A DNA stretch of 63,719 nucleotides, filler included. It is 8 parts of 8 records of this genome, joined end to end, with 100 filler letters (N's around TTAATTAATTAA, not from the genome) between each part and the next. Parts side by side here need not be neighbours in the genome. Positions count along the whole stretch, not along the records: positions 44,689 to 50,363 come from SRR31156797_14232; 7 more parts are not named here. One strand, 5' to 3'. Each line of letters starts with the position of its first letter. Position 1 is the stretch's first letter. The position numbers were made by a program, and so were the translations under genes. The notes under the pieces are model-generated. The model was given only the letters and a program-made list of their open reading frames with translations, did no database searches and was not told the origin of the DNA. Below, piece after piece: positions 4,811-50,463 of the stretch.

Positions 4811-6217
4811 TTAAGAATAACTTGATCCATCCCAACAATGGGTACATAATTTTTCTTTGGGCAATCCAATCGCTTCAACCAGATCGTTTAATTTTTGATA
4901 TTTTAATGATGTTAATCCCAGGTTTTTTCTGATTCTTTCAACCATGTTTTTATACTCTTCCGTTTCAGGATCGGAATATTTTTTCAAATCGACATCCTCT
5001 GTCCCTTTTAGCTGGCTAATTGCAGTTCTGGTTGCCAGTTCAAGGGTTTTTCTTGAGCGTGAGAAATTAAGAAACTCACAGGGATATGTTAATGGAGGGC
5101 ATGCAATTCGCATGTGAACATCTTTTATTCCTTCAGAATGTAAATCACGCGTATTATCTTTTAACTGTGTTCCTCTTACGATAGAATCGTCAAGAAAAAT
5201 ACCACGTTTATCTTTTATTAATGCAGGGTTTGGGATTAGTTTCATTTTAGCAACCAAGTCGCGCATTTTCTGGTTTTGAGGCATAAAACTTCGGGGCCAG
5301 GTTGGGGTGTATTTTGCATAAGGTCGTGTGTATGGGATTTTACGTTTGTTGCTGTAGCCTATTGCATGGCCAACTCCCGAGTCGGGGATTCCTGCGACAA
5401 AATCGGCTTCGACAGCGTCGTTTTCGGCCAATGCAGCTCCACAACGATAACGCACTTCATCTACATTTATTCCTTCGTAGTACGATGGCGGATAACCATA
5501 ATAAACCCATAAAAACGAGCAAACCTGCATTTTTTTCTCTGGTTTGCGAAGCTGAACAATTCCGTCGGCTGTTATTCTTATAATTTCTCCCGGACCAATA
5601 TACTTATCGATTTCATAATTTAAGTTTGCAAAAGAACAACTTTCCGAAGCCACAGCAAATCCATCGCAGTTTTTCCCAACTACAATTGGAGTCCGACCAA
5701 GTTTATCGCGGGCTGCAATTATTTCATTCTCGGTAAGTATAATTATAGAGCATGATCCTTTTATTTTATTAAAAACATTTTCAATGCCGGAAACAAAATC
5801 TTGTCCGCCAGCAATGAGCATGGCAACCAATTCTGTTGGATTAACACTTCCCTGGCTCGTTTCAGAAAAAGTTCTGTTATTATCGAGTAGTTCTTTTTCA
5901 AGTTCCTCAGCATTGTTTATTTTGCTAACTGTTGCTATGGCAAACTTTCCCAAGTGAGAATTCGCAACAATGGGTTGAGCTTCATTATCACTGATAATTC
6001 CTATTCCGCTGTTTCCTTCAAAGTTTTTGATGTCATTTTCAAACTTGCTTCTAAAGTACCCATCTTCCAGGCTATGTATAGATCGTTGAAATCCTTTTTT
6101 TTGATTGAAAAATGCCAGCCCGGCTCTTTTTGTTCCCAGATGTGAATGGTAGTCAGTTCCATAAAATACGTGGGCAACACAGTCAGTTTTAGAGTTAATC
6201 CCGAAAAATCCGCTCAT
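4811..6217 (-). CDS. purF: Amidophosphoribosyltransferase family protein, variant without the N-terminal Cys nucleophile
   Basis: GIPDSG and FLDDSIVRGT PRPP loop, ACPP and LCTHCWDG Fe-S ligands. N-terminus is MSGFFG rather than MCG. Confidence 0.85.
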   Translation of the reverse strand: MSGFFGINSKTDCVAHVFYGTDYHSHLGTKRAGLAFFNQKKGFQRSIHSLEDGYFRSKFENDIKNFEGNSGIGIISDNEAQPIVANSHLGKFAIATVSKINNAEELEKELLDNNRTFSETSQGSVNPTELVAMLIAGGQDFVSGIENVFNKIKGSCSIIILTENEIIAARDKLGRTPIVVGKNCDGFAVASESCSFANLNYEIDKYIGPGEIIRITADGIVQLRKPEKKMQVCSFLWVYYGYPPSYYEGINVDEVRYRCGAALAENDAVEADFVAGIPDSGVGHAIGYSNKRKIPYTRPYAKYTPTWPRSFMPQNQKMRDLVAKMKLIPNPALIKDKRGIFLDDSIVRGTQLKDNTRDLHSEGIKDVHMRIACPPLTYPCEFLNFSRSRKTLELATRTAISQLKGTEDVDLKKYSDPETEEYKNMVERIRKNLGLTSLKYQKLNDLVEAIGLPKEKLCTHCWDGSSYS

Positions 6218-6348
6218 TAGTTTTTGGTTTTATAGATTTATGAATTCGGGAAATTATTGGTTTTTCTTTTTAACTCTGAATAAAAGCACAAATCTTTTTT
6301 AACAATCTACCAACAACGATTTAGTTTTTCGGGAGCCAAGGATACAAT

Positions 6349-6891
6349 TTATTTCACTAATTTAGAAATTGCTCTGAACTCCGGAGCTTTGGCTGTTCTG
6401 GTCAATTCAAACAAAATCGATTCGTATGAAGTCATCATAATACCTTCAATCCGGAATCGTTCTTTTGCCAATTCGATATTTTCTTTGCTCCTTGAAGAAA
6501 TACAATCGGTAACCACAATTGGATTATAACCGGCTTCTTTTAAATCTACTGCAGTTTGAAGTACGCAGACATGCGATTCTATCCCGCAAATGATGATGTT
6601 CTTTGCATTTATTTCATTCAGTTTAGTTACTACTTCTGATTCGTCGTAACAACTGAAATCGCTTTTTTCAATGTATTCAAAAGCGGGTGCCACCGATTTT
6701 ATCTCGGGAAGAGTTTCGCCAAGTCCTTTTGTATATTGTTGCGTGAAAATGGTTGGAATCGATAATTCTTTTAAACCTTCAATTAAAATTTTACAATTAG
6801 TAAGCAGTTTTTCTTTCTCCCACATTACAGGAAATAACCGTTCCTGAATATCTATAACCAATCCTGCTGTATTTTCTTTTGTAATCCTCAT
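6349..6891 (-). CDS. Isochorismatase-family (YcaC-like) hydrolase
   Basis: VIDIQERL, TQQYTKGLG and GIESHVCVLQT motifs. ATG start at MRITKEN chosen. Confidence 0.9.
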   Translation of the reverse strand: MRITKENTAGLVIDIQERLFPVMWEKEKLLTNCKILIEGLKELSIPTIFTQQYTKGLGETLPEIKSVAPAFEYIEKSDFSCYDESEVVTKLNEINAKNIIICGIESHVCVLQTAVDLKEAGYNPIVVTDCISSRSKENIELAKERFRIEGIMMTSYESILFELTRTAKAPEFRAISKLVK

Positions 6892-6919
6892 ACTAAAACT
6901 ATATTTTACTTTTAACAAT

Positions 6920-7531
6920 TTATTTTTTCAACTTGGCTTGTTTTCGCGATTTATCACCTAAATAACCGCCGTGGTGTCGTTTTGCATAATCTTTACTTGT
7001 AAACCCGATTTTATTCATGAGTGTAACTACCAGTGCATCGCCAATTACTGTCATAACTGTAGTTGAAGTAGTTGGCGATAATCCTAACGGACAAACTTCG
7101 GCGGGATTTCCTGTGTAAATAAAAGCATCGGCATTTTTTGCCAGATTACTTTCCGGATTTCCTGAAATAACAACAACAGGTAAACCGTGGTGAAGATTTT
7201 CAGCCAGTTCAACAAGTTCTATTATTTCGCGGGTTTTCCCTGAATTTGAAATCAATAAAAGAACATCGTTTTCCTGAACTACACCCAAATCGCCATGCTG
7301 CGAGTCGCTGGGGTGTAAAAAAACAGATGGTGTTCCGGTTGAACTAAAAGTAGTAGCAATATTCAGGGCAATCTGTCCGGCTTTACCCATACCACTGGCC
7401 ACCAATTTCCCCTTTTTTTTATGAACTTGCGTGAAAATTAATTCAACAGCATCTACAAAATTATCGTTTACCGGAATATTACTAATGGCTTTTGCCTCTT
7501 GTTCAATAACTTTTCTAATTGATTCCTTCAT
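6920..7531 (-). CDS. KpsF/GutQ-family arabinose-5-phosphate isomerase (SIS domain only)
   Basis: SGMGKAG, HGDLG, SNSGKT, EVCPLGLSPTTST and HHGG motifs. No CBS domains. Bacteroidota-type TAGCTTTG -7 element just upstream. Confidence 0.9.
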   Translation of the reverse strand: MKESIRKVIEQEAKAISNIPVNDNFVDAVELIFTQVHKKKGKLVASGMGKAGQIALNIATTFSSTGTPSVFLHPSDSQHGDLGVVQENDVLLLISNSGKTREIIELVELAENLHHGLPVVVISGNPESNLAKNADAFIYTGNPAEVCPLGLSPTTSTTVMTVIGDALVVTLMNKIGFTSKDYAKRHHGGYLGDKSRKQAKLKK

Positions 7532-7892
7532 GATGAAAAATTTGCACAAAGCTACATGAAAATTTATTTTGTTGTAAACGTTCGTTGCAATAAAATGTAA
7601 TTATTGATAAAAAAATGGCTTGCTAATTTTAATTGTCAGGTAATCAGGTATGTTTGATTTTACATTAGAAATAAATCTTTTAATGTAAAATAACGGGGAA
7701 AAGTAATTGATTTTGTCTATGAATTTTTACTTTTATAACAAGATTTTAAATTTTTAAATCATCTGTTGAAACAGTAGCCTTACATGTTGCAGGTCATAAA
7801 AAAAGGTAAATATTGATAGGTCTGGATATGTAAATATTTGGTATTTTTGACGATTATTTTTTTACTACATATATCATTTCTAATAACTAAAG

Positions 7893-7919
7893 ATGAAAAT
7901 TCACGAATATCAAGCCCGA
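7893..7919 (+). CDS. sucC: Start of succinyl-CoA ligase beta subunit (truncated by contig end)
   Basis: MKIHEYQAR matches the conserved SucC N-terminus, but only 9 codons are visible. Confidence 0.65.
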
Positions 7920-8019
7920 NNNNNNNNNNNNNNNNNNNNNNNNNNNNNNNNNNNNNNNNNNNNTTAATTAATTAANNNNNNNNNNNNNNNNNNNNNNNNN
8001 NNNNNNNNNNNNNNNNNNN
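7920..8019. other. Artificial contig linker N44-TTAATTAATTAA-N44; also at 22222-22321, 33129-33228, 38909-39008, 44589-44688, 50364-50463 and 57812-57911
   Basis: Identical 100-nt spacer with stops in all six frames. Genes are truncated at most junctions. Confidence 0.99.
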
Positions 8020-42438: not shown

Positions 42439-44588
42439 ATGCGAATACTTCTTAGCTTATTATTCATAGTATCATCTATACCCATGTTGGCTCAAACTGA
42501 AGTCAGCGGAAGGGTGACTGATAAAAAAGGGGAGCCTTTGGTAGGAGTAAATATTTATTTTAAAGATACCTATGATGGCACCATCACTGATGCAGAAGGA
42601 TATTTTCAAGCAGCCTCCTCCGAACCTGGTGAGTTAATATTAATTGCCCGTTTTGTAGGATATAAATCCTTTGAACAAGCCTTAAATGAAGGTTCCCATA
42701 CTTTAAATATTGTATTAAAAGAAAGTGCTCAGAGTCTGGAAGCCGTAACGGTTACTGCCGGTAGTTTTGCTGCCGGTGATAAACACAAAGCGTCGCTAAT
42801 GAAATCGTTAGACATATATACTACGGCAGGTTCATTAGGCGATGTTTCCAGTGCACTGAATACATTGCCGGGAACGCAACAGGCAAGCGATGATGGGCGT
42901 TTGTTGGTGCGTGGAGGCGAGGCTTACGAAACCAAAACGGTGATTGATGGAGTGTTGGCTGGTAAACCGTATTATTCTAAAGTGCCGGATGCACCTACCC
43001 GGGGACGTTTTTCACCTTCTCTTTTTTCAGGTGTCATGTTTAATACGGGCGGATATTCAGCAGAGTATGGTCAGGCTTTATCCTCGGTATTGGTTTTAGA
43101 AAGCAATGATTTGTTTACAGAGGATGTATTGTCACTTTCGTTTATGAGTATTGGCGGAGAAGTAAATTATACCGAATCGTGGCAAAATAATTCGTTATCA
43201 GTTTTGGGGAGCTATATCAATTTCGCACCATATGTGGGACTCATCAATACTAAATTCGATTATGAAAAACCTACGGAGTCCTTTAGTGGGAGTTTGATTT
43301 ATCGTTATAAAACGAAAAAGAATGGAATGGTAAAAGCTTATTTTACCAGCGATGCCGGAAAAACAAGATTTAGAAGTGATTCAGGTGTTGAAGGGCAGCA
43401 ATATATAACCCAATCCCAAAATAATAATTACTATGGAAATGTTACTGTTCGTCAGCCTTTAAATAATAAAACATCCTTAAAAGCGGGAGCTTCAGTTACT
43501 TTGGATAATCCGGATATTATTTATCATACCCAACATATTCAGAATAAGGAAACCAACCTGGAAAGTCGAATATTGCTGGTGCATGAATTGGCCGATGGTC
43601 TTAAATTCAAATATGGGATAAGTAATACGGCTACTGATTTTTTGCAACACTATCAGGCACATCCCGATTCAGTAAAATATAAACCTTCTTATACCGATTT
43701 TTTGACCGGAGTTTTTACTGAAGCACAGTGGCAGATTTCTAAAAATGTGGCACTTTCTGCCGGATTAAGATATGAGTATTCCTCTTTATTAAATAAGAGT
43801 AGTATGGTACCCCGGTTAGGTATGGCCGTTGCTACCGGAAAAAGAAGTCAGCTTACAGCTTCGTACGGTCATTTCTATCAGAATCCGCAAAGCGATGAAC
43901 TAAAGTTTACCGATCAATTAGATTTTGAGAAAGCAGCGCATTACATTCTGGGTTTTCAGTCCGGAAGTACTGATAAACGATTTTTTAGGATAGAATCATA
44001 TTATAAAAAGTACACTAATCTGGTTAAATATGGTTCGGGAGAATATTATAATCCAACTTATTATTCTAATTCCGGAAAAGGAGATGCTTTGGGGTTGGAT
44101 ATGTTTTGGAGAGATAATGTTTCTGTTAAATTCCTGGATTATTGGATATCCTATTCTTATATCGATACCCAAAGAGAGTATAAGTACTACGATTTTATGG
44201 CAAAGCCTTCTTATATATCCAATCATAATTTTTCGGCTGTAGGAAAATACTGGATTCACAAGTTAAATTGTCAGGTTGGCGCTACTTATTGGTTATCTAG
44301 TGGAAGAAACTGGTACGAACAAACCAATAATAACTTGATAACTCATAAAGGCGCTTTGACTAATCAACTGGATTTAAACTTAAGTTATATCACGCAAATA
44401 GCGGGAAACCAAACAATACTTCACCTTTCATTGTCCAATGTATTGGGAACAGATCAGGTATTTGGTTACCGCCAGGGACCTATCCGTAATAACGACGGAA
44501 GCGCTCACTACCTACCAATTTCAAACAACATTAAGCAGTTTGCCTTTGTAGGATTATTTATTAACCCGAGTTCGATTCTAAAAAAGAG
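42439..44588 (+). CDS. TonB-dependent receptor with N-terminal CarboxypepD_reg-like domain (3'-truncated)
   Basis: Signal peptide, SGRVTD..GEPLVGVNI, plug LPG..VRGG, GGYSAEYGQALSS and barrel strands. Confidence 0.92.
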
Positions 44589-44688
44589 NNNNNNNNNNNN
44601 NNNNNNNNNNNNNNNNNNNNNNNNNNNNNNNNTTAATTAATTAANNNNNNNNNNNNNNNNNNNNNNNNNNNNNNNNNNNNNNNNNNNN

Positions 44689-44835: not shown

Positions 44836-44993
44836 TTATCACAACGTTAAAGCTTTAAGGTGGTAATATTCGTAAACTGCAGCCATATCCGTTTATATGG
44901 TTAACGGTTTCCCCTGCTTTAGCAATCAATTAAGGCCCGTGTTCCCATCGGGTGTGCTGCATATGACGATAAATCTATTGCGCCCCCCTTGCG

Positions 44994-45082
44994 ATGCAAA
45001 ATATTTGCATTACAATATATGAATTGTCGAATATATAGGCTAATATGCTTGCGCGGTTGCAGTGAGTGCAATTGAGTTGCAC
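44994..45082. promoter_or_regulatory. Two candidate Zur boxes
   Basis: 17-bp palindromes ATGCAA-AATAT-TTGCAT (44994-45010) and GTGCAA-TTGAG-TTGCAC (45066-45082) upstream of znuA. Confidence 0.75.
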
Positions 45083-45125
45083 ATTAAATGGCTTGCAGTA
45101 TTAACTTAATTTGAAGGAGAAGGAA

Positions 45126-46055
45126 ATGTATCAAAATGTTCGTAGTTTTTTACTTTTCTTAGTTGTGACATGGGTGATGCCGGTGACCTGTTTTGCATCA
45201 GGCCAGCTCCCTGTATTTGTCAGCATCGTACCCCAAAAATACTTTGTGCAACAAATTGGCAAGGATTTGGTGGATATTCAAGTCATGGTCTTGCCCGGTG
45301 CCAGTCCTGCAACATATGAACCCAAACCCCAGCAGATGGCTGCTCTTTCAAAGACCAAAATTTATTTTACCATCGGTGTCCCGTTCGAAAACGCATGGCT
45401 GGAAAAAATCACCGACTCAAATCCCAACATGCGGATAATCGATACGGATCAAGGTATCGAAAAGCTCCCCATGGAGGCTCACCACCATGATAATGACCAC
45501 GCAAAAGAACATCATGAAGGCCTACACCATGATGAGGCCGCGCACGATGAAGAGCATCATGATCAAGCCGGGCTTGACCCTCACATCTGGTTGTCGCCAA
45601 CGCTCGTGAAAATCCAGGCCCGAAACATACTGAACGCACTACTGGAGGCCGACCCAGCGCATCGGAGTGTTTATGAAGCCAACTTCAAGAAATTTATAGA
45701 AAAACTAGACCAATTGGACACTGATTTCAAAAAAACTTTCGCAGGGAAAAAGGGGCTGCAGTTCATGGTATTTCATCCAGCCTGGGGATATTTTGCCCAT
45801 GACTATGGGCTGCAACAGGTTCCCATCGAGATTGAAGGCAAGAGCCCAAAACCTGCCCAGTTGAAGAAATTGGTCCAACATGCCAGGGAAAGCCGGATAA
45901 AGATAATTTTTGTCCAACCCCAGTTTTCAGTCAAAGATGCTGAAGTCGTGGCCCAGGAGATTGGCGGCCAAGTAGTTTTTGCCAATCCTTTAGCTGAAAA
46001 TTGGATGGACAATTTGCATCAAGTCGCAGCTAAATTCCAGGCAGCGCTGAAATAA
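45126..46055 (+). CDS. znuA: Zinc ABC transporter substrate-binding protein with His-rich loop
   Basis: PGASPATYEP, HHHDNDHAKEHHEGLHH, DPHIWLSP and FHPAWGYFA motifs. Confidence 0.93.
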   Translation: MYQNVRSFLLFLVVTWVMPVTCFASGQLPVFVSIVPQKYFVQQIGKDLVDIQVMVLPGASPATYEPKPQQMAALSKTKIYFTIGVPFENAWLEKITDSNPNMRIIDTDQGIEKLPMEAHHHDNDHAKEHHEGLHHDEAAHDEEHHDQAGLDPHIWLSPTLVKIQARNILNALLEADPAHRSVYEANFKKFIEKLDQLDTDFKKTFAGKKGLQFMVFHPAWGYFAHDYGLQQVPIEIEGKSPKPAQLKKLVQHARESRIKIIFVQPQFSVKDAEVVAQEIGGQVVFANPLAENWMDNLHQVAAKFQAALK

Positions 46056-46071
46056 TATAAATGGGCTTCCC

Positions 46072-46851
46072 ATGGCGATTATCGAAATAAATAATCTTGA
46101 TTTTACCTACAACAGAGAAACTATCCTAAAGGATGTGAATCTTGCCGTTCCGGAGAAGGATTTTGTCGCGATTATCGGTCCCAACGGCGGTGGCAAGACC
46201 ACCCTGTTGAAACTGATTTTAGGGTTGCTAACGCCGGATAAGGGGACAATCCTCATCGATGGGAAACTTCCCCAGAAGGCTTCATCGTGCATAGGCTACG
46301 TACCGCAGGATATCCATTTGAACCAAAGCTTTCCTATCACTGCCATCGACGTGGTGCTGATGGGAAAGCTTGATCCCAAACACCGTTTGTCTCGAAGATC
46401 CGCTGCTAATCGCTGTGATGCCTTGGCAGCTCTCGAACGTATGGATATGAAAGCCTATGCTGACAAGAAAATCGGTACGCTTTCCGGAGGTCAACGCCAA
46501 AGGGTCTTCATTGCCAGGGCATTGGTGACTAAGCCCAAGCTGCTTTTATTGGACGAACCCACCTCCAGTATCGACACTAAGGGGCAGGCGGATTTTTATC
46601 AGCTTCTCCAGGAATTCAACCAAGATATTACTATTTTAGTGATCAGCCATGACCTGCTGGTTGTATCCCGTTATGTGAAATCGGTAGCCTGCGTCAACAA
46701 AAAACTGCATTATCATGACCAGGCTGAAATAACCGGCGATATGCTGGAGGCCATGTATCCTTGCACCGCCGAGGAGGTTTGTCCCGTAGAATTGGTAGCC
46801 CACGGTCTGCCCCACCGAGTACTATCAGAACATGAGAACCAATCGTTATGA
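46072..46851 (+). CDS. znuC: Zinc ABC transporter ATPase
   Basis: GPNGGGKTT, LSGGQRQR and LLDEP motifs. C-terminal CPVELVAHG. Confidence 0.93.
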   Translation: MAIIEINNLDFTYNRETILKDVNLAVPEKDFVAIIGPNGGGKTTLLKLILGLLTPDKGTILIDGKLPQKASSCIGYVPQDIHLNQSFPITAIDVVLMGKLDPKHRLSRRSAANRCDALAALERMDMKAYADKKIGTLSGGQRQRVFIARALVTKPKLLLLDEPTSSIDTKGQADFYQLLQEFNQDITILVISHDLLVVSRYVKSVACVNKKLHYHDQAEITGDMLEAMYPCTAEEVCPVELVAHGLPHRVLSEHENQSL

Positions 46852-47678
46852 TTGAAGCCCTGCAATTTGAATTCATGCGCAATGCCCTGGCTGCGGGCCT
46901 GCTGGCCAGCGTAATTTGTGGTATCATAGGCACTCTGGTAGTGGTCAACCGAATCGTCTTTCTTTCCGGTGGCATCGCCCACGCCGCATATGGTGGTATT
47001 GGGCTGGCGTCATTTTTCAAATGGCCCTATTTGCCAAGCACAATCGCTTTTTCCCTGTTCGCTGCTATGCTCATGGCTTCTGTGAGCTACAAGATGAAGC
47101 ACCGGGCCGATACGGTCATCGGCGTTATATGGGCTCTTGGAATGGCGCTGGGCATAATTCTCGTTGACTTGACACCTGGGTATAACGTGGATCTGATGAG
47201 CTATCTGTTCGGCAGTATACTCGCTGTTCCCAGGTCGGATCTGTTCTTCATGACATTTATCGGCATTGCGATGATACTCCTTGTGACCTATTATTATCAG
47301 GATCTGCTGGCCATCTCCTATGATGAGGAGTTCGCCAAAATCAGGGGGGTACCGGTTAAAGAGCTCTACTTTGTATTGATCGGCATGTTGGCTGTTACCG
47401 TTGTTCTGGTCATCCAGGTCGTCGGTCTCATTTTGGTCATTGCCCTGTTGACGATTCCACCTTTTATGGTTGAAAAATATGCAAAATCACTTTTTCAGAT
47501 GATGGTGGCGTCCAGCTTACTTGGAGCAGCTTTTACGGTTACCGGACTCTGGCTCTCGTATCAGTACAACCTCACATCAGGCGCTTCGATTATACTGGTT
47601 GCAGGTGTTGTGTTTTTGATTTCCCTGCTTGTAGATAAAATACGTTCTGCTTGCCACAGAGCACCAAATGTGTCATGA
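46848..47678 (+). CDS. znuB: Zinc ABC transporter permease
   Basis: GGIAHAAYGG, YLFGSIL and SYDEEFA motifs; multiple TM helices. Confidence 0.93.
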   Translation: MIEALQFEFMRNALAAGLLASVICGIIGTLVVVNRIVFLSGGIAHAAYGGIGLASFFKWPYLPSTIAFSLFAAMLMASVSYKMKHRADTVIGVIWALGMALGIILVDLTPGYNVDLMSYLFGSILAVPRSDLFFMTFIGIAMILLVTYYYQDLLAISYDEEFAKIRGVPVKELYFVLIGMLAVTVVLVIQVVGLILVIALLTIPPFMVEKYAKSLFQMMVASSLLGAAFTVTGLWLSYQYNLTSGASIILVAGVVFLISLLVDKIRSACHRAPNVS

Positions 47679-47698: not shown

Positions 47699-48139
47699 AT
47701 GTGTGACCAATGCAATTATGAAAATCTGTTGTCGAATGCGGATCTGGATGCGACCAAAAATCGTATTCAAGTTCTTGAAATTGTAGGAAATAACACGTTT
47801 CCTCTTTCCGCCGGCGACATCTACGCTATCCTGGAGCGTACCAGTTCTATCAATCGTGTGACGGTCTACCGTATTCTTGATCTATTGGTAGAACATGGTG
47901 TTGTTGATCGTATAAGTACTGGCGGCAGAGCCTTTTACTACGGTATTGCTCCCAACGAACACCATAAACCGCACCCTCACTTTTACTGTAGAATCTGCGG
48001 GCAGATGGACTGTTTAAGCCCCGCAAGTTTAATTGTTGACATCGGCCCTTTATTAAAGACGTATCCCGGAAGGATTGAGAAGGTGGAAATTCGTGTAGAT
48101 GGAATATGTAAAAATTGTGCAAAAGTGGGAAAAAAGTAG
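47699..48139 (+). CDS. zur: Fur-family regulator, probably Zur
   Basis: TVYRILD, HPHFYCRICG and GICKNC motifs; located in the znu operon. Confidence 0.85.
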   Translation: MCDQCNYENLLSNADLDATKNRIQVLEIVGNNTFPLSAGDIYAILERTSSINRVTVYRILDLLVEHGVVDRISTGGRAFYYGIAPNEHHKPHPHFYCRICGQMDCLSPASLIVDIGPLLKTYPGRIEKVEIRVDGICKNCAKVGKK

Positions 48140-48190
48140 GTGTAGTAGTAGGTAAAAATCAAACCAAAAAAACTTCACAAGGAGGATTCC

Positions 48191-48352
48191 ATGGCTAACT
48201 GTTGCGACATGAAAGAAGGTGATCTGTTTGTGTGTGAAAAATGCGGGTTGGAACTCAGTGTCAAAAAGCCTTGCACATGCGATGCTAACGCTCCAGATAC
48301 CTGTTGCACCGTACCACTGCAGTGTTGTGGTCAGGAGATGACGAAAAAGTAA
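48191..48352 (+). CDS. 53-aa Cys-rich metal-binding protein (desulforedoxin/metallothionein-like; not in ORF track)
   Basis: AAGGAGG RBS, then MANCCDMKEGDLFVCEKCGLELSVKKPCTCDANAPDTCCTVPLQCCGQEMTKK (10 Cys), followed by a hairpin. Confidence 0.88.
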   Translation: MANCCDMKEGDLFVCEKCGLELSVKKPCTCDANAPDTCCTVPLQCCGQEMTKK

Positions 48353-48374
48353 AAGTAGAACATCTCCCGCATTA

Positions 48375-48409
48375 AAAGGGCAAAGGTTGTTGCACTACCT
48401 TTGCCCTTT
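48375..48409 (+). terminator. Hairpin after the small Cys-rich gene
   Basis: AAAGGGCAAAGGT-TGTTGCACT-ACCTTTGCCCTTT. Confidence 0.75.
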
Positions 48410-48460
48410 ATTATTTGCGCAAACGACAGTTCAGATAAAAAGACTAATCTCCGAGGAAAT

Positions 48461-49552
48461 ATGGCGAAAAAAGATAGCCCGCCACCAATACCGATTTACC
48501 AGAAATCAGGTGCAGAACCTGAAAGTGATGTAGATATTTTTTCGAGTTCCTTAGGAAGTACTGTCGGAGTATTTTTTCTTGTTGTTGCTTTTCTGCTCTT
48601 TCTTTCAGCTCACTCCCAAAACCAGAATTTTGCCTCTTTTACAGGTCTTTTTTCGATTAATTTCACTTCTATTGTTTTAGAGGCAATACCTTTCATGTTG
48701 ATTGGGACCCTTGTAGGAGGAGTCATTGAAGTCTTTGTTCCAACGCCACTCATTGACCGTTTCTTGGGGAAAAACAGAAAAAGTGGAGTTTTGCTGGCAG
48801 GTGGCCTGGGCTTGCTCTTTCCGACATGTGAGTGCGCAATAGTCCCTATTGTTCGTCGGCTTATAATTAAGGGTGTTTCAATTCCTTCTGCTGTTTGCTT
48901 TATGCTCAGTGGCCCGATTGTGAATGCTATCGTGGCCTGGTCTACAGCAATCGCCTACACCTACAACTGGAAAATGGTCCTACTAAGAATCAGCTGTGGC
49001 TATGGGGTTGCTGTCATAATTGGGTTACTGCTTACCCGTTTTTCCAATCCAGAGAAGCTTGTATTAGAAAATGTTGCAGAGCTGTCTCTTCGTCAATGCG
49101 GCTGCAGCGATGAAGAGTTTCAAAAACATCAACTTTTATCCAAATTTTTACATGCGATTGGACATGCACGAGATGACTTTTTAGAGGTAGGTAAGTATCT
49201 GGTTCTCGGGGCTTTTATAGCAGCTTTCATACGCACTGCCACTCCTGTTACGAACTTTGAGGCTTTGTCCGCCTCGCCGTGGTTGATGATTTTAGTCATG
49301 ATGGTGATGGCTATGGTTATGAATCTTTGCAGTGAAGCGGATGCATTTATTGCTGCAAGTTTCAGGTGGCTCATACCAGGTAGTGCTCAACTGGGATTCT
49401 TGGTGTTAGGCCCTATGCTGGACCTTAAGCTTATGCTGATGTACCTCACTGTTTTTCGCAAGCGAGCCATTATACTCTTTTCTGTTGTAACATTTGCTAC
49501 GGTCTACGCTCTAATGCTCATTATTGAATTCTTTCTACCTCCATTTGTCTGA
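48461..49552 (+). CDS. UPF0718/DUF318 (YcgR-like) permease
   Basis: EAIPF, FPTCECAIVP, NLCSEADAF and GPMLDLK motifs. ATG follows GAGG. Confidence 0.88.
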   Translation: MAKKDSPPPIPIYQKSGAEPESDVDIFSSSLGSTVGVFFLVVAFLLFLSAHSQNQNFASFTGLFSINFTSIVLEAIPFMLIGTLVGGVIEVFVPTPLIDRFLGKNRKSGVLLAGGLGLLFPTCECAIVPIVRRLIIKGVSIPSAVCFMLSGPIVNAIVAWSTAIAYTYNWKMVLLRISCGYGVAVIIGLLLTRFSNPEKLVLENVAELSLRQCGCSDEEFQKHQLLSKFLHAIGHARDDFLEVGKYLVLGAFIAAFIRTATPVTNFEALSASPWLMILVMMVMAMVMNLCSEADAFIAASFRWLIPGSAQLGFLVLGPMLDLKLMLMYLTVFRKRAIILFSVVTFATVYALMLIIEFFLPPFV

Positions 49553-50253
49553 TGATACTGAGGTCAATCAACATCATATTGCTCTCTGTATGGGCTATTT
49601 TCCTCTTCTGGCTCCTTACTTTTGGAAGGAGTGATTTAGTACGCTTACTCCATCCTAGATTATGGTGGGTACTCGGCATTGCTGCTGTTGTATTAGTGTT
49701 ATTTCTCGTTTCTCTCGTCATTCCTAACAGGCATGCTAAGAGGTATAAACCTATACTTATGGAGCTCCCAGGCATTTTGATCATGCTTGTCCCCATTCTG
49801 TATTTTTCCATTGCCGCAGAAGCAAGACTTGATGGGACTTCATTGCAAAACAGAATTATCCAAAGCGATAACGGCATGTACCTTAACAGCCTGCCATCTT
49901 TTAAAATATTTGATGAGACTCAGTCATCAGGCATGGTGTTTTCACAGATACTACGTAAGCCAAAGGACTTTGATGGGCAGCGGGTTGAAGTTGTGTGCCA
50001 GAGTTTTGTTAATGAGAAACTTCCTGAGAATATAGCAATGTGTTACCGCTATATGATTACCTGCTGTGCGGCCGATGCCCTTCCAGCGTTTATATTCCTC
50101 AGTCATACAAGCGAAATGGAAATTGAAAATGACCGCTGGGTACAGATAAACGGCCCACTTTCAATCATCAGAAACAATGGAATGGAGTTTCCATCTATTG
50201 AAATTGAAGCACTCGAATATGTTGAAGAACCGGCCTTTCCATGGGCGATGTAA
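49552..50253 (+). CDS. TIGR03943/DUF1980 (YcgQ-like) membrane protein
   Basis: Three N-terminal TM helices, RYMITCCAADA motif; coupled to the YcgR-like gene. Confidence 0.85.
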   Translation: MILRSINIILLSVWAIFLFWLLTFGRSDLVRLLHPRLWWVLGIAAVVLVLFLVSLVIPNRHAKRYKPILMELPGILIMLVPILYFSIAAEARLDGTSLQNRIIQSDNGMYLNSLPSFKIFDETQSSGMVFSQILRKPKDFDGQRVEVVCQSFVNEKLPENIAMCYRYMITCCAADALPAFIFLSHTSEMEIENDRWVQINGPLSIIRNNGMEFPSIEIEALEYVEEPAFPWAM

Positions 50254-50463
50254 AAGAAGGTGCCGACTCCATATTCCCTTGCATGTATACCGGAGCGCTG
50301 GTCCAACGATAAAACCCACTCAAGGAAACGTGAAGGCTCTGGCACATTTTCTTCACCGGAAAANNNNNNNNNNNNNNNNNNNNNNNNNNNNNNNNNNNNN
50401 NNNNNNNTTAATTAATTAANNNNNNNNNNNNNNNNNNNNNNNNNNNNNNNNNNNNNNNNNNNN

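Follow-up and report, generated by a model that had tools for sequence, protein, structure and literature searches.

The locus described here lies within a window of 63,719 nucleotides (the whole stretch of DNA that was analysed) and consists of a zinc-uptake operon that carries a small, cysteine-rich gene at its 3′ end. All of its genes are on the plus strand. They run from znuA (45111-46055; PF01297, 7.6e-72, with a His-rich loop) through znuC (46072-46851; PF00005, 2.2e-34) and znuB (46848-47678; PF00950, 3.2e-72) to a gene for a Fur-family regulator (47699..48139; PF01475, E 2.5e-13), and end with the small gene (48191..48352), with gaps of 16, -4, 20 and 51 nt along the series. The regulator falls below the cut-off for every NCBIfam Fur/PerR/Zur model and is called Zur-type by its position; we refer to its gene as zur.

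The zinc-uptake operon and its surroundings

Two candidate Zur boxes lie upstream of znuA, both listed without strand. The first (44994..45010) is a 17-bp palindrome with the core TGCAA-N5-TTGCA and sits between the hexamers of a promoter-like site at 44989-45016, and the second (45066..45082) has the same core and lies some 30 nt 5′ of the znuA start. Perfect palindromes of this type occur only twice in the window, where 0.16 are expected, and both are found in the ~120 nt that precede znuA. Their core is identical to that of the ZUR consensus predicted for Desulfovibrio, according to the available part of its source (PMC545781, Table 5). With up to one mismatch allowed, no box is found between the small gene and the permease gene that follows, nor upstream of the TonB receptor.

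No terminator-like sites are seen on the plus strand between 45111 and 48190, and the first strong hairpin is 3′ of the small gene (48378..48416, plus strand). It resembles an intrinsic terminator, with a 9-bp G+C-rich core stem (48378-48386 / 48398-48406), an 11-nt loop and then a U-rich tract (48407-48416). Its folding energy is -24.1 kcal/mol (z = -4.27) and 0/200 shuffles fold equally well, in agreement with the original prediction, which gave the small gene a 3′ hairpin of its own. A simple terminator scan misses this hairpin because the loop limit of the scan is 8 nt.

The small gene is, then, the last cistron of a znuA-znuC-znuB-zur-small operon that is closed by a terminator-like hairpin. 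With two Zur-type boxes in front of the operon and this hairpin at its end, the small protein should be made when zinc is scarce; that is, its expression would be zinc-responsive. Control by Zur, as first proposed, would fit the two perfect boxes upstream of znuA and the zinc-linked context of 35 of the 80 homologue loci discussed below. In two runs of a single study, RNA-library contigs of a relative that is ~93% alike extend across both zur and the small gene, a weak hint of expression that is also compatible with DNA carry-over or with separate transcripts. The same contigs cover little of the permease region.

Downstream of the hairpin is a gene for an ArsP_1-family permease (48461..49552, plus strand; PF03773, 3.3e-57), with only distant similarity to the SO_0444 Cu/Zn efflux family (87 bits against a cut-off of 300). 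Its stop is overlapped by the start of a gene for a putative DUF1980_C / TIGR03943-like permease subunit (49552..50253, plus strand; 3.9e-16, and 87.0 bits against a cut-off of 88.8). The CEC and CGC motifs of the first and the CC motif of the second, which had been pointed out before, are visible in the translations. The small gene does lie between zur and this pair, as described originally, but the terminator-like hairpin at 48378..48416 stands between the gene and the pair. The uptake-storage-delivery hand-off suggested there is conjectural. Our literature search returned nothing on the small-protein family or on the ArsP_1/DUF1980 (TIGR03943) permease pair. Among the papers listed for the permease family names, most concern the unrelated E. 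coli PilZ protein YcgR.

A conserved gene for a small protein

The small gene encodes 53 residues and is supported by its translation, homologues, a profile search and a predicted fold; a GGAGG ribosome-binding site (48181..48185, plus strand, read from the sequence) lies 5 nt 5′ of the ATG. The 53-aa, 10-Cys ORF with a ribosome-binding site that had been called here is therefore present as described. A short ORF that no curated family matches at threshold could be a chance reading frame in the 3′ region of zur, and we considered this explanation. It is rejected because of the relatives at 60-94% identity, which are spread over dozens of genera, the AGGAG-type sites 5′ of nearly all the homologues displayed, the invariant cysteines, and an excess of third-position differences (15336, 11506 and 32082 at codon positions 1, 2 and 3 among 48 gapless homologues of 52 aa). 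We regard a chance ORF as barely credible, and conclude that the ORF at 48191-48352 is a real and conserved gene.

All 60 of the 60 database candidates are relatives at E ≤ 0.01 and are at most named ‘hypothetical’; 60 representative clusters match at E ≤ 0.001 among 1.84 billion proteins. Together with 113 genomic relatives of the gene, the 60 database relatives are almost all from Thermodesulfobacteriota. The homologue in Desulfogranum marinum is 94% identical, is annotated as a ‘hypothetical protein’, and is carried by the cultured strain DSM 2058. Among 201 genomes sampled from the order of D. marinum the family is found in two, and a family so sparsely distributed does not belong to the core of zinc uptake.

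None of the Pfam and NCBIfam models reaches threshold with the small protein, and tblastn finds no second copy of the gene within the window. Among 6876 candidates only one longer or fused form is seen, a 262-aa methyltransferase fusion in one cluster, which may be a gene-call artefact. In the ESM Atlas, a score of 0.95 is obtained for unnamed clusters only, and one of 0.88 for a cluster that has PF06397 on 13% of its members, which we treat as a lead only.

A predicted desulforedoxin-like scaffold with added cysteines

The small protein has 10 cysteines, at positions 4, 5, 15, 18, 28, 30, 39, 40, 46 and 47, or 19% of its residues. Their spacing is CC-x9-CxxC-x9-CxC-x8-CC-x5-CC, which is the pattern first reported in all but one interval, the gap from CxC to CC having been given as x7. 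Conservation among the 52-aa homologues is very uneven across these positions: C4, C15, C18, C28, C30 and C46 are present in 48/48, C40 and C47 in 47/48 each, C5 in 27/48, and C39 in the closest relatives only. C5 and C39 are therefore lineage-specific. The aromatic residue F/Y13 is also kept in 48/48.

Part of this pattern is that of desulforedoxin (Dx), the compact single-metal-site domain of ~36 residues known from Desulfovibrio gigas (1dxg, 1cfw) and from the N-terminus of 2Fe superoxide reductase/desulfoferrodoxin (1dfx, 2ji1; PF06397). Both share with the small protein an EGD-aromatic-x-C-x2-C-G ... C-C-G-x-x-M-x-K frame. A PDB profile search returns Dx as the best match (E 0.0022, residues 8-52), with C15-x2-C18-G19 and C46-C47-G48 of the small protein aligned to the Dx cysteines. 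Of the 52-aa homologues, 48/48 keep the CxxC pair of this core; the first cysteine of the CC pair is kept in 48 of them and the second in 47. At E ≤ 10, 54 of the 70 family members weakly match PF06397 (Desulfoferrod_N), the best of them at 2.7e-4; the window protein itself reaches 7.2 bits against it (E 5.5, below the cut-off of 23), and the Pfam scan gives it no hit at E ≤ 0.1. The Dx entries in the PDB include ones titled Ga-substituted, among several others.

Structure comparison points in the same direction. The AF2 model of the small protein has a mean pLDDT of 81.4, with a lower value of 63 for the insert, and predicts an ordered, Dx-like fold with two short strands. Foldseek places Dx or the Dx domain of superoxide reductase at all of ranks 1-6, although with E-values of only 0.24-1.3 and for a model whose predictor was trained on the PDB; against 1dxg the probability is 0.99, the TM-score (target) 0.83 and the rmsd 1.7 Å. 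VIA-align ranks Dx (1cfw) first, with a Z of 4.5, an rmsd of 1.7 Å, all 36/36 Dx residues aligned and 39% identity, and its runner-up has a Z of 2.6. These searches support a Dx-like scaffold for the small protein, as had been proposed from the sequence.

That said, the small protein departs from Dx in several respects. It has 52-53 residues where Dx has 36, and its gene belongs to a zinc-uptake operon that has no redox partner genes. The Dx alignment leaves a 10-residue gap that holds the CxC...C of the small protein, and C4 sits in an N-terminal extension. A second conserved group, C4, C28, C30 and C40, is thus carried by this extension and by the ~10-residue insert. Even where positions have shifted, at least four cysteines outside the Dx core are found in 84 of 94 core-intact family proteins. 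The proposal of six cysteines added to a Dx frame holds for these four, but not for C5 (27/48) or for C39 (closest relatives only). As only four of the six extra cysteines are conserved, the family signature is 4+4 Cys.

There is also some resemblance to the LysW-type zinc ribbon (PF21344), to which 13 of 70 members show a weak similarity at a G-D-x-x-x-C-x2-C-G-x-E-L knuckle (best E 7e-4); the LysW-type structure 3wwl gives an E of 0.07 in the PDB profile search. This match covers only ~15 residues, has no counterpart to the CC of the second knuckle, and the rest of the fold differs.

The cysteine content raises the question of whether this is a true metallothionein, with all its 8-10 thiols joined in a single bridged M3-M4 thiolate cluster for the storage or detoxification of Zn, Cd or Cu; this is the multi-metal version of the original prediction. 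Modular duplication is typical of metallothioneins, and the family has a tandem two-domain form of 114 aa with 2 matched stretches (P0074); CC, CxC and CxxC motifs in a protein with 19% Cys are also what one would expect. However, the predicted fold is ordered and Dx-like, with F/Y13 in 48/48, and is not a coil templated by a cluster, two of the ten cysteines are not conserved, and the 15 Pfam families matched by the 70 members at E ≤ 10 do not include a metallothionein family. The gene's companions are also uptake genes; neither efflux genes nor a sensor of the ArsR/SmtB type is among them. A metallothionein in this strict sense is very unlikely in our view, and the 4+4 signature fits two tetrathiolate sites better than one large cluster, the second of them being formed, we infer, by C4, C28, C30 and C40.

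The comparison is still useful. Like the bacterial metallothioneins (the SmtA/BmtA type and those of Pseudomonas), the small protein is small and Cys-rich, and likely to be zinc-binding and cytosolic. It differs from them in lacking a metallothionein sequence match, in its fold and in having no His ligands, and also in that its presumably Zur-repressed operon would have it made in zinc deficiency and not in sufficiency. There is a precedent for tying a metallothionein gene to Zur in Synechococcus WH8102, in the available part of the report (PMC9337993).

Zinc, iron and the neighbours of the small gene

The genes around 80 homologue loci were labelled as zinc, redox or box, with labels of our own. 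Zinc-uptake-type genes are present at 35 of these loci, peroxide or redox genes adjoin ~12, and 28 carry neither label. The association with zinc genes implied by the original prediction is thus found, but not throughout the family, and for one clade it partly fails. Clusters similar to ZnuC and to ZnuB are each found at 21 of the 80 loci, and a Fur-family cluster at 20, in 17 of them at position -1; in 15 relatives a zur homologue is directly upstream of the small gene. ZrgA is a neighbour at two loci (L050, L078), DUF3299 at three (L003, L029, L050) and ZIP at one (L059). Remnants of the zur 3′ end appear by eye upstream of the small gene in L029, L041 and L048, but with tblastn at a limit of E ≤ 1e-3, only L056 and L063 give confirmed fragments.

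Boxes with at most one mismatch accompany the gene outside the arrangement of the window. They precede copies that lead a znu operon (L014, L025, L038, L077), and four copies with no zur or znu gene within ±6 kb: L008, L070, L028 (beside COG0523) and L032 (beside a TonB receptor). Matches to TGGAAGGCATTTGCA at -62 in L007, L011 and L021 lie inside the coding end of zur and were not counted as operators.

The main rival to a zinc-binding role draws on the same survey. The site of Dx, which is a homodimer with an Fe(III)/Fe(II) redox centre, natively binds Fe, and the nearest relatives of the small protein in both structure and sequence are the iron-binding Dx and the Dx domain of superoxide reductases. 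It could accordingly be a Dx/rubredoxin-type electron carrier with one or two Fe(Cys)4 sites that feeds peroxide- or oxygen-detoxifying enzymes. The ~12 redox loci include genes for AhpF-like reductases (L052, L058, L061), peroxiredoxins (L047, L069), a catalase (L049) and a superoxide reductase (L009), as well as rubrerythrin-like, hemerythrin, prismane and DJ-1 genes, and in five loci (L047, L069, L052, L058, L061) the redox gene follows the small gene on the same strand. These loci are concentrated in a separate clade of 29 rows, with support of 99/94. An iron protein in a zinc operon would be explained as a zinc-independent substitute for a zinc-ribbon protein, or by shared Fur-family regulation. 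Zinc contexts, however, dominate the 47-row clade to which the window belongs (29 Zn, 5 box, 2 redox and 11 unlabelled rows), the operon of the window has no redox partner gene, and Zur-type boxes precede the four copies lacking any zur or znu gene within ±6 kb. Nor are Dx and rubredoxin characterised by CxC and CC pairs combined with four additional conserved thiols. We consider an iron carrier unlikely, and if it were correct the finding would shrink to a new desulforedoxin subfamily.

Another possibility is that the cysteine sites are structural only and that the protein is a regulatory micro-protein, one that may bind and modulate a membrane transporter (ZnuBC or the ArsP_1/DUF1980 pair), a COG0523 GTPase or Zur. 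An example of this kind is MntS of E. coli, which belongs to the MntR regulon, is not Cys-rich and acts on the Mn exporter MntP. Both are very small proteins of a metal-starvation regulon, and by analogy the protein studied here could act on metal trafficking and not in catalysis, but the sequences are unrelated, the metals differ and the present protein is Cys-rich, so that the analogy is functional only. A size of 52-53 aa would suit such a regulator, as would its standalone form (the single fusion among 6876 candidates notwithstanding) and its recurrence beside ArsP_1 (11/80 loci, 6 at +1), DUF1980 (7 loci) and COG0523 (3 loci: L017, L028, L045). On the other hand, none of these partners is constant across loci, and eight invariant cysteines in 52 residues exceed the need of a single structural zinc ribbon. 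We think a regulator of this type quite unlikely.

We tentatively favour, at slightly less than even confidence, a member of the Zur regulon that holds metal at two thiolate sites and serves as a Zn acceptor or buffer. Under zinc scarcity the small protein would probably bind a metal, and zinc is the likeliest. Our proposal is of a small cytosolic protein on a Dx fold, in which site 1 would be made by C15-x2-C18 and C46-C47, a second tetrathiolate site by C4, C28, C30 and C40, and C5 and C39 would be spare thiols in the lineage of the window. Made under zinc scarcity through the Zur boxes upstream of its operon, it would bind about two Zn(II) per monomer and would accept, pass on or buffer, with high affinity and in the cytosol, the zinc that enters by the derepressed importer. 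Such buffering would also blunt the zinc surge on resupply. Both the choice of zinc as the metal and the buffer or relay role are suggested by sequence and gene context, and against them it can be said that a tight Zn(Cys)4 binder would, in zinc starvation, compete with essential zinc proteins.

Zinc allocation under starvation has already been proposed for other proteins from Zur-type clusters. The COG0523 zinc metallochaperones (YciC/ZigA/ZagA) belong to Zur regulons, as stated in the accessible part of PMC2770081. The small gene is like them in its setting in Zur-type clusters and in the role suggested for it, and it adjoins COG0523 in three relatives; it differs in size (~50 aa as opposed to 300-400 aa), in having no GTPase domain and in its unrelated sequence.

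Importers, COG0523 chaperones and zinc-free paralogues without cysteines are the familiar members of Zur regulons. The available portion of a 2018 review of these regulons has no Cys-rich small protein among their members (PMC6103462). It is possible, if somewhat doubtful, that the small protein represents an undescribed class, a zinc-starvation-induced Dx fold with an added Cys4 site that acts as the zinc acceptor or buffer of a Zur-repressed operon and has been redeployed beside peroxide-defence genes in a sister clade. As the protein is small and standalone, and a copy exists in the cultured D. marinum DSM 2058, it could be tested at little cost. If the proposal is true, a ‘metallothionein-like’ protein would be produced under zinc scarcity and not under abundance. 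A thiol-rich protein that is co-expressed with an importer would raise the question of how incoming zinc is handed over or buffered in starvation and on resupply, and it would also show a route by which a 36-residue iron-protein fold gained a second metal site.

A conserved gene with eight family cysteines

The ORF at 48191-48352 (+), with 53 residues, was first described as having its own ribosome-binding site and 3′ hairpin, and translation, sequence and folding against shuffles recover all three. A GGAGG stands at 48181-48185, five bases 5′ of the ATG, and 3′ of the stop codon a core stem (48378-48386 with 48398-48406, 11-nt loop) is directly followed by a U-rich tract (48407-48416). The folding energy of the hairpin is -24.1 kcal/mol (z = -4.27), equalled by 0 of 200 shuffles; our simple terminator scan left it out because loops were limited to 8 nt. 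Pairwise differences among 48 homologues of exactly 52 aa each (15336, 11506 and 32082 at the three codon positions) are a clear coding signature. This is a real gene and a family, and we give next to no credence to the ORF being a non-gene.

The window protein has ten cysteines, at residues 4, 5, 15, 18, 28, 30, 39, 40, 46 and 47. Their spacing is CC-x9-CxxC-x9-CxC-x8-CC-x5-CC, which differs from the pattern first described in a single spacer, x8 in place of x7. Among the gapless homologues (window numbering), C4, C15, C18, C28, C30 and C46 are found in 48 of 48 and C40 and C47 in 47 of 48; C5 is a cysteine in only 27 of 48, and the extra C39 is restricted to the closest relatives. These counts point to a family signature of 4 + 4 cysteines, not 4 + 6: four of the six cysteines that were thought to be added to the desulforedoxin (Dx) frame are conserved. 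Distant members can lose the CxC, yet show other cysteines nearby. By our pattern the CxxC...CC core is intact in 94 of 115 family proteins, the remaining 21 being truncated, frameshifted or odd. At least four further cysteines accompany the core in 84 of these 94, and the ten with fewer include calls starting at an internal Met. That the protein is a cluster-type metallothionein, one of the two roles first proposed, we judge quite unlikely.

The small protein is conserved, stand-alone and about 52 aa long. In a word-indexed protein search 60 of 60 candidates matched at E<=0.01 (46-85 aa, 51-94% identical), and the sole name among them is 'hypothetical protein' (Desulfogranum marinum, an uncultured Desulfobacter and a Desulfobacterales MAG). 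HMMER run in full against 1.84 billion representatives gave 60 clusters at E<=0.001, nine of these at <=1e-10, and 113 of 128 pattern-matching stretches in one-genome-per-species contigs encode a relative. The hosts are nearly all Thermodesulfobacteriota (Desulfocapsaceae, Desulfobulbaceae, Desulfobacteraceae, Desulfosarcinaceae and others), with one record labelled Sedimentisphaerales. The family is sparse, being present in 2 of 201 sampled genomes from the order of the D. marinum genome. Only 1 of 6876 candidates has a longer form. The database relative P0074 (114 aa) is a tandem two-domain version, with two matched stretches and the full cysteine set in each.

A znuABC-zur unit and its candidate operators

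In the lineage of the window the small gene closes a znuABC-zur unit that bears Zur-type boxes. Upstream of it on the + strand lie ZnuA (PF01297, 7.6e-72; His-rich loop), ZnuC (ABC_tran), ZnuB (ABC-3, 3.2e-72) and a Fur-family protein (PF01475, 2.5e-13). The gaps from znuA through the small gene are 16, -4, 20 and 51 nt, and the terminator scan found no + strand terminator-like site between the two. The regulator falls below the cut-off of every NCBIfam Fur, PerR and Zur model; its label as Zur-type comes from where it lies and from the candidate operators upstream. The small protein could also be a regulatory micro-protein with structural zinc, a reading we hold to be rather improbable.

Two 17-bp palindromes upstream of znuA are candidate Zur boxes: box 1 (44994-45010), between the hexamers of a promoter-like site (44989-45016), and box 2 (45066-45082). 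Across all 63.7 kb of the window, the core TGCAA-N5-TTGCA is present in just these two copies, where shuffling would give 0.16, and 1 of 100 window shuffles reaches two copies. The ZUR consensus that was predicted for sites preceding znuABC-zur in two Desulfovibrio genomes, ATGCAACnnnGTTGCAT, has the identical core (PMC545781, in excerpt). Across the relatives' loci, boxes with at most one mismatch number 13 in 19.6 kb within the 250 nt before the small gene and 55 in 762 kb elsewhere, a ninefold difference in density. Three of the 13 (L007, L011, L021) lie inside zur coding sequence and were discounted as operators. In four of the other loci box and small gene lead a znu operon (L014, L025, L038, L077), in two the box is common to the small gene and a divergent znuA (L039, L054), and in four it precedes the small gene with no zur or znu within the ±6 kb covered (L008, L028, L032, L070); in L028 a COG0523 gene follows. 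These ten boxes are the best evidence for the predicted Zur-type control of the small gene itself, not just of its neighbours.

L023, L024 and L026 have in common a different, partly repeated palindrome-like motif around GCAATGATCATTGC, some 40-110 nt before the small gene. In those lineages it may act as the operator for a further Fur-family regulator.

Downstream of the hairpin, spanning 48461-50253, is an ArsP_1 permease (PF03773, 3.3e-57; CEC and CGC motifs) whose gene is overlapped by that of a DUF1980_C/TIGR03943-like protein (87.0 bits, cut-off 88.8; CC motif). The pair recurs in relatives beside the small gene or znu genes, and no description of its function was found in the literature. 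Its closest named relatives are efflux proteins but far under cut-off, so transport may go in either direction; for the permease, the similarity to SO_0444 Cu/Zn efflux is only distant (87 vs 300 bits). A TonB-dependent receptor (42439-44640), whose N-terminal domain is CarboxypepD_reg-like, immediately precedes the znu operon. It extends at its 3′ end into a masked N stretch, and has no Zur-type box upstream at <=1 mismatch. Masked stretches lie at about 44589-44688 and about 50370-50420, and ORFs entering them show X runs.

Of the sampled words, 94% are present in one DNA run and 7-9% in two metatranscriptomic runs of one study. Contigs from RNA libraries, belonging to a relative that is about 93% alike and placed on the window (X13, 47777-48255; X16, 47702-48318), run from zur over the 51-nt gap into the small gene, and a further contig covers 48272-48469. 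They are a weak hint of expression: strand, level and the existence of one continuous transcript cannot be read from contigs, and libraries of this type may also contain DNA.

A likeness to desulforedoxin

At E<=0.1 the window protein matches nothing in Pfam or NCBIfam; at E<=10, PF06397 scores 7.2 bits against a cut-off of 23. The same family matches 54 of 70 aligned members (best E 2.7e-4), and the second-ranked, a LysW-type zinc ribbon, matches 13. A 33-member profile run against all PDB sequences has Dx as its best match (E 0.0022 sequence, 0.42 stretch), with profile positions 8-52 aligned to Dx residues 2-36 and one 10-residue gap exactly at CxC...C. The AlphaFold2 model built from the 70-sequence alignment (mean pLDDT 81.4, pTM 0.57) is weakest at residues 31-40 (pLDDT 63). 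Its top Foldseek match is 1dxg (prob 0.99, target-normalised TM 0.83, rmsd 1.7 Å, E 0.24), followed by five superoxide-reductase chains with a Dx-like N-terminal domain. In an independent all-against-representatives alignment, the top place goes to Ga-substituted Dx (Z 4.5, rmsd 1.7 Å, 36 of 36 residues, 39% identity), the runner-up reaching only Z 2.6.

The three methods agree on a likeness to Dx, as the scaffold first proposed had it, with scores that are modest because the domain is tiny. The small protein probably works like a Dx-type domain and probably descends from one. Unlike Dx, it stays below the Pfam threshold and has two Cys-bearing additions, so we do not count it as a plain Dx member. 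None of the sources names a function, and the protein stays under threshold for every curated family. A description of the family was not found in full-text literature, where coverage of subscription journals is thin and absence is not proven, and the excerpted text of a 2018 Zur-regulon review (PMC6103462) mentions no Cys-rich small regulon member.

Two apparent settings for one family

ORFs were called in the best 80 of the 113 genomic relatives' loci, numbered L001-L080, and compared with the window proteins. Neighbours were clustered over three genes each side, and 230 otherwise unassigned ones, up to two genes per side, were scanned with Pfam. ZnuC-like and ZnuB-like clusters are largest (21 loci each), then the Fur-family regulator (20 of 80 loci, 17 at position -1), ArsP_1 (11, six at +1), ZnuA (10) and DUF1980 (7). 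With the window regulator as tblastn query, the 400 nt preceding the small genes gave matches in 18 loci. In 15 of these a zur on the same strand extends as far as the small gene; the rest are two fragments (L056, L063) and one distant opposite-strand match (L018). Further zinc-type neighbours are COG0523 (L017, L028, L045), ZrgA (L050, L078), DUF3299 (L003, L029, L050), ZIP (L059), DUF4198 (L003, L059) and TonB receptors (L009, L017, L032, L034).

Several genomes have two copies of the small gene (assemblies common to L016 and L022, L032 and L041, L045 and L048). The zur fragments in L056 (about 2669-2803) and L063 (about 5788-5943) lie directly upstream of second copies, and even shorter 3′ remnants are visible by eye in L029, L041 and L048. 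The arrangement points to a duplication that took in both the small gene and the end of zur.

By our own labels, the expected company of zinc genes is kept by 35 of 80 loci, whereas redox or peroxide genes adjoin the small gene in about 12 and 28 are unlabelled, several of them on short contigs. L049 adjoins catalase, yet is labelled zinc-linked because of its ArsP_1/DUF1980 pair, and five more loci are labelled solely by an upstream box or a by-eye zur-like remnant. The redox neighbours include AhpF-like reductase (L052, L058, L061) and peroxiredoxin (L047, L069), both directly downstream, as well as superoxide reductase (L009), rubrerythrin-like (L046), hemerythrin (L057), prismane (L065), DJ-1 (L067) and FMN reductase or flavodoxin (L027, L040). 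In L009 (5690-6082, -), a single case, the superoxide reductase has one domain, Desulfoferrodox without the Dx N-domain, and is convergent to the small gene.

In the five loci with peroxiredoxin or the roughly 550-aa thioredoxin-domain/pyridine-nucleotide-disulphide reductase (AhpF-like), the redox gene follows the small gene on the same strand (about 6000-8000 in the locus). These loci sit in a clade separate from that of the window. Their arrangement suggests that this protein family is also put to use under peroxide stress.

The maximum-likelihood tree of 81 proteins is built on few columns and leaves many forks unresolved. Its split (support 88/89) leaves 47 rows with the window (29 Zn, 5 box, 2 redox, 11 unlabelled) and 34 opposite (10 redox, 7 Zn, 17 unlabelled); the latter contain a 29-row clade (99/94) of 9 redox, 3 Zn and 17 unlabelled, and the window's own clade has 13 rows (99/98). 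The Zn label changes 9 times against a shuffled mean of 14.6, with 0 of 500 shuffles as low, a measure that near-copies inflate. Context labels are clustered on the tree, so the family seems to be deployed in two settings, with the window's copy in the zinc one.

Thiolate chemistry would equally suit the peroxide-linked clade, as an oxidant-sensitive zinc/thiol buffer or as an Fe redox carrier. For the window protein, an Fe redox carrier is conceivable given the Dx likeness, but we consider it unlikely. Our tentative preference is for a zinc-binding protein of the Zur regulon. The Dx-like core is joined by four further conserved cysteines, which may form a second tetrathiolate site, and the bound metal would be Zn(II). 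Zinc limitation would raise expression of the small gene, and its product may accept, relay or buffer zinc entering via the derepressed importer. What is new would then be that a domain of desulforedoxin fold acquired a second Cys4 group and was taken into a zinc-starvation operon.
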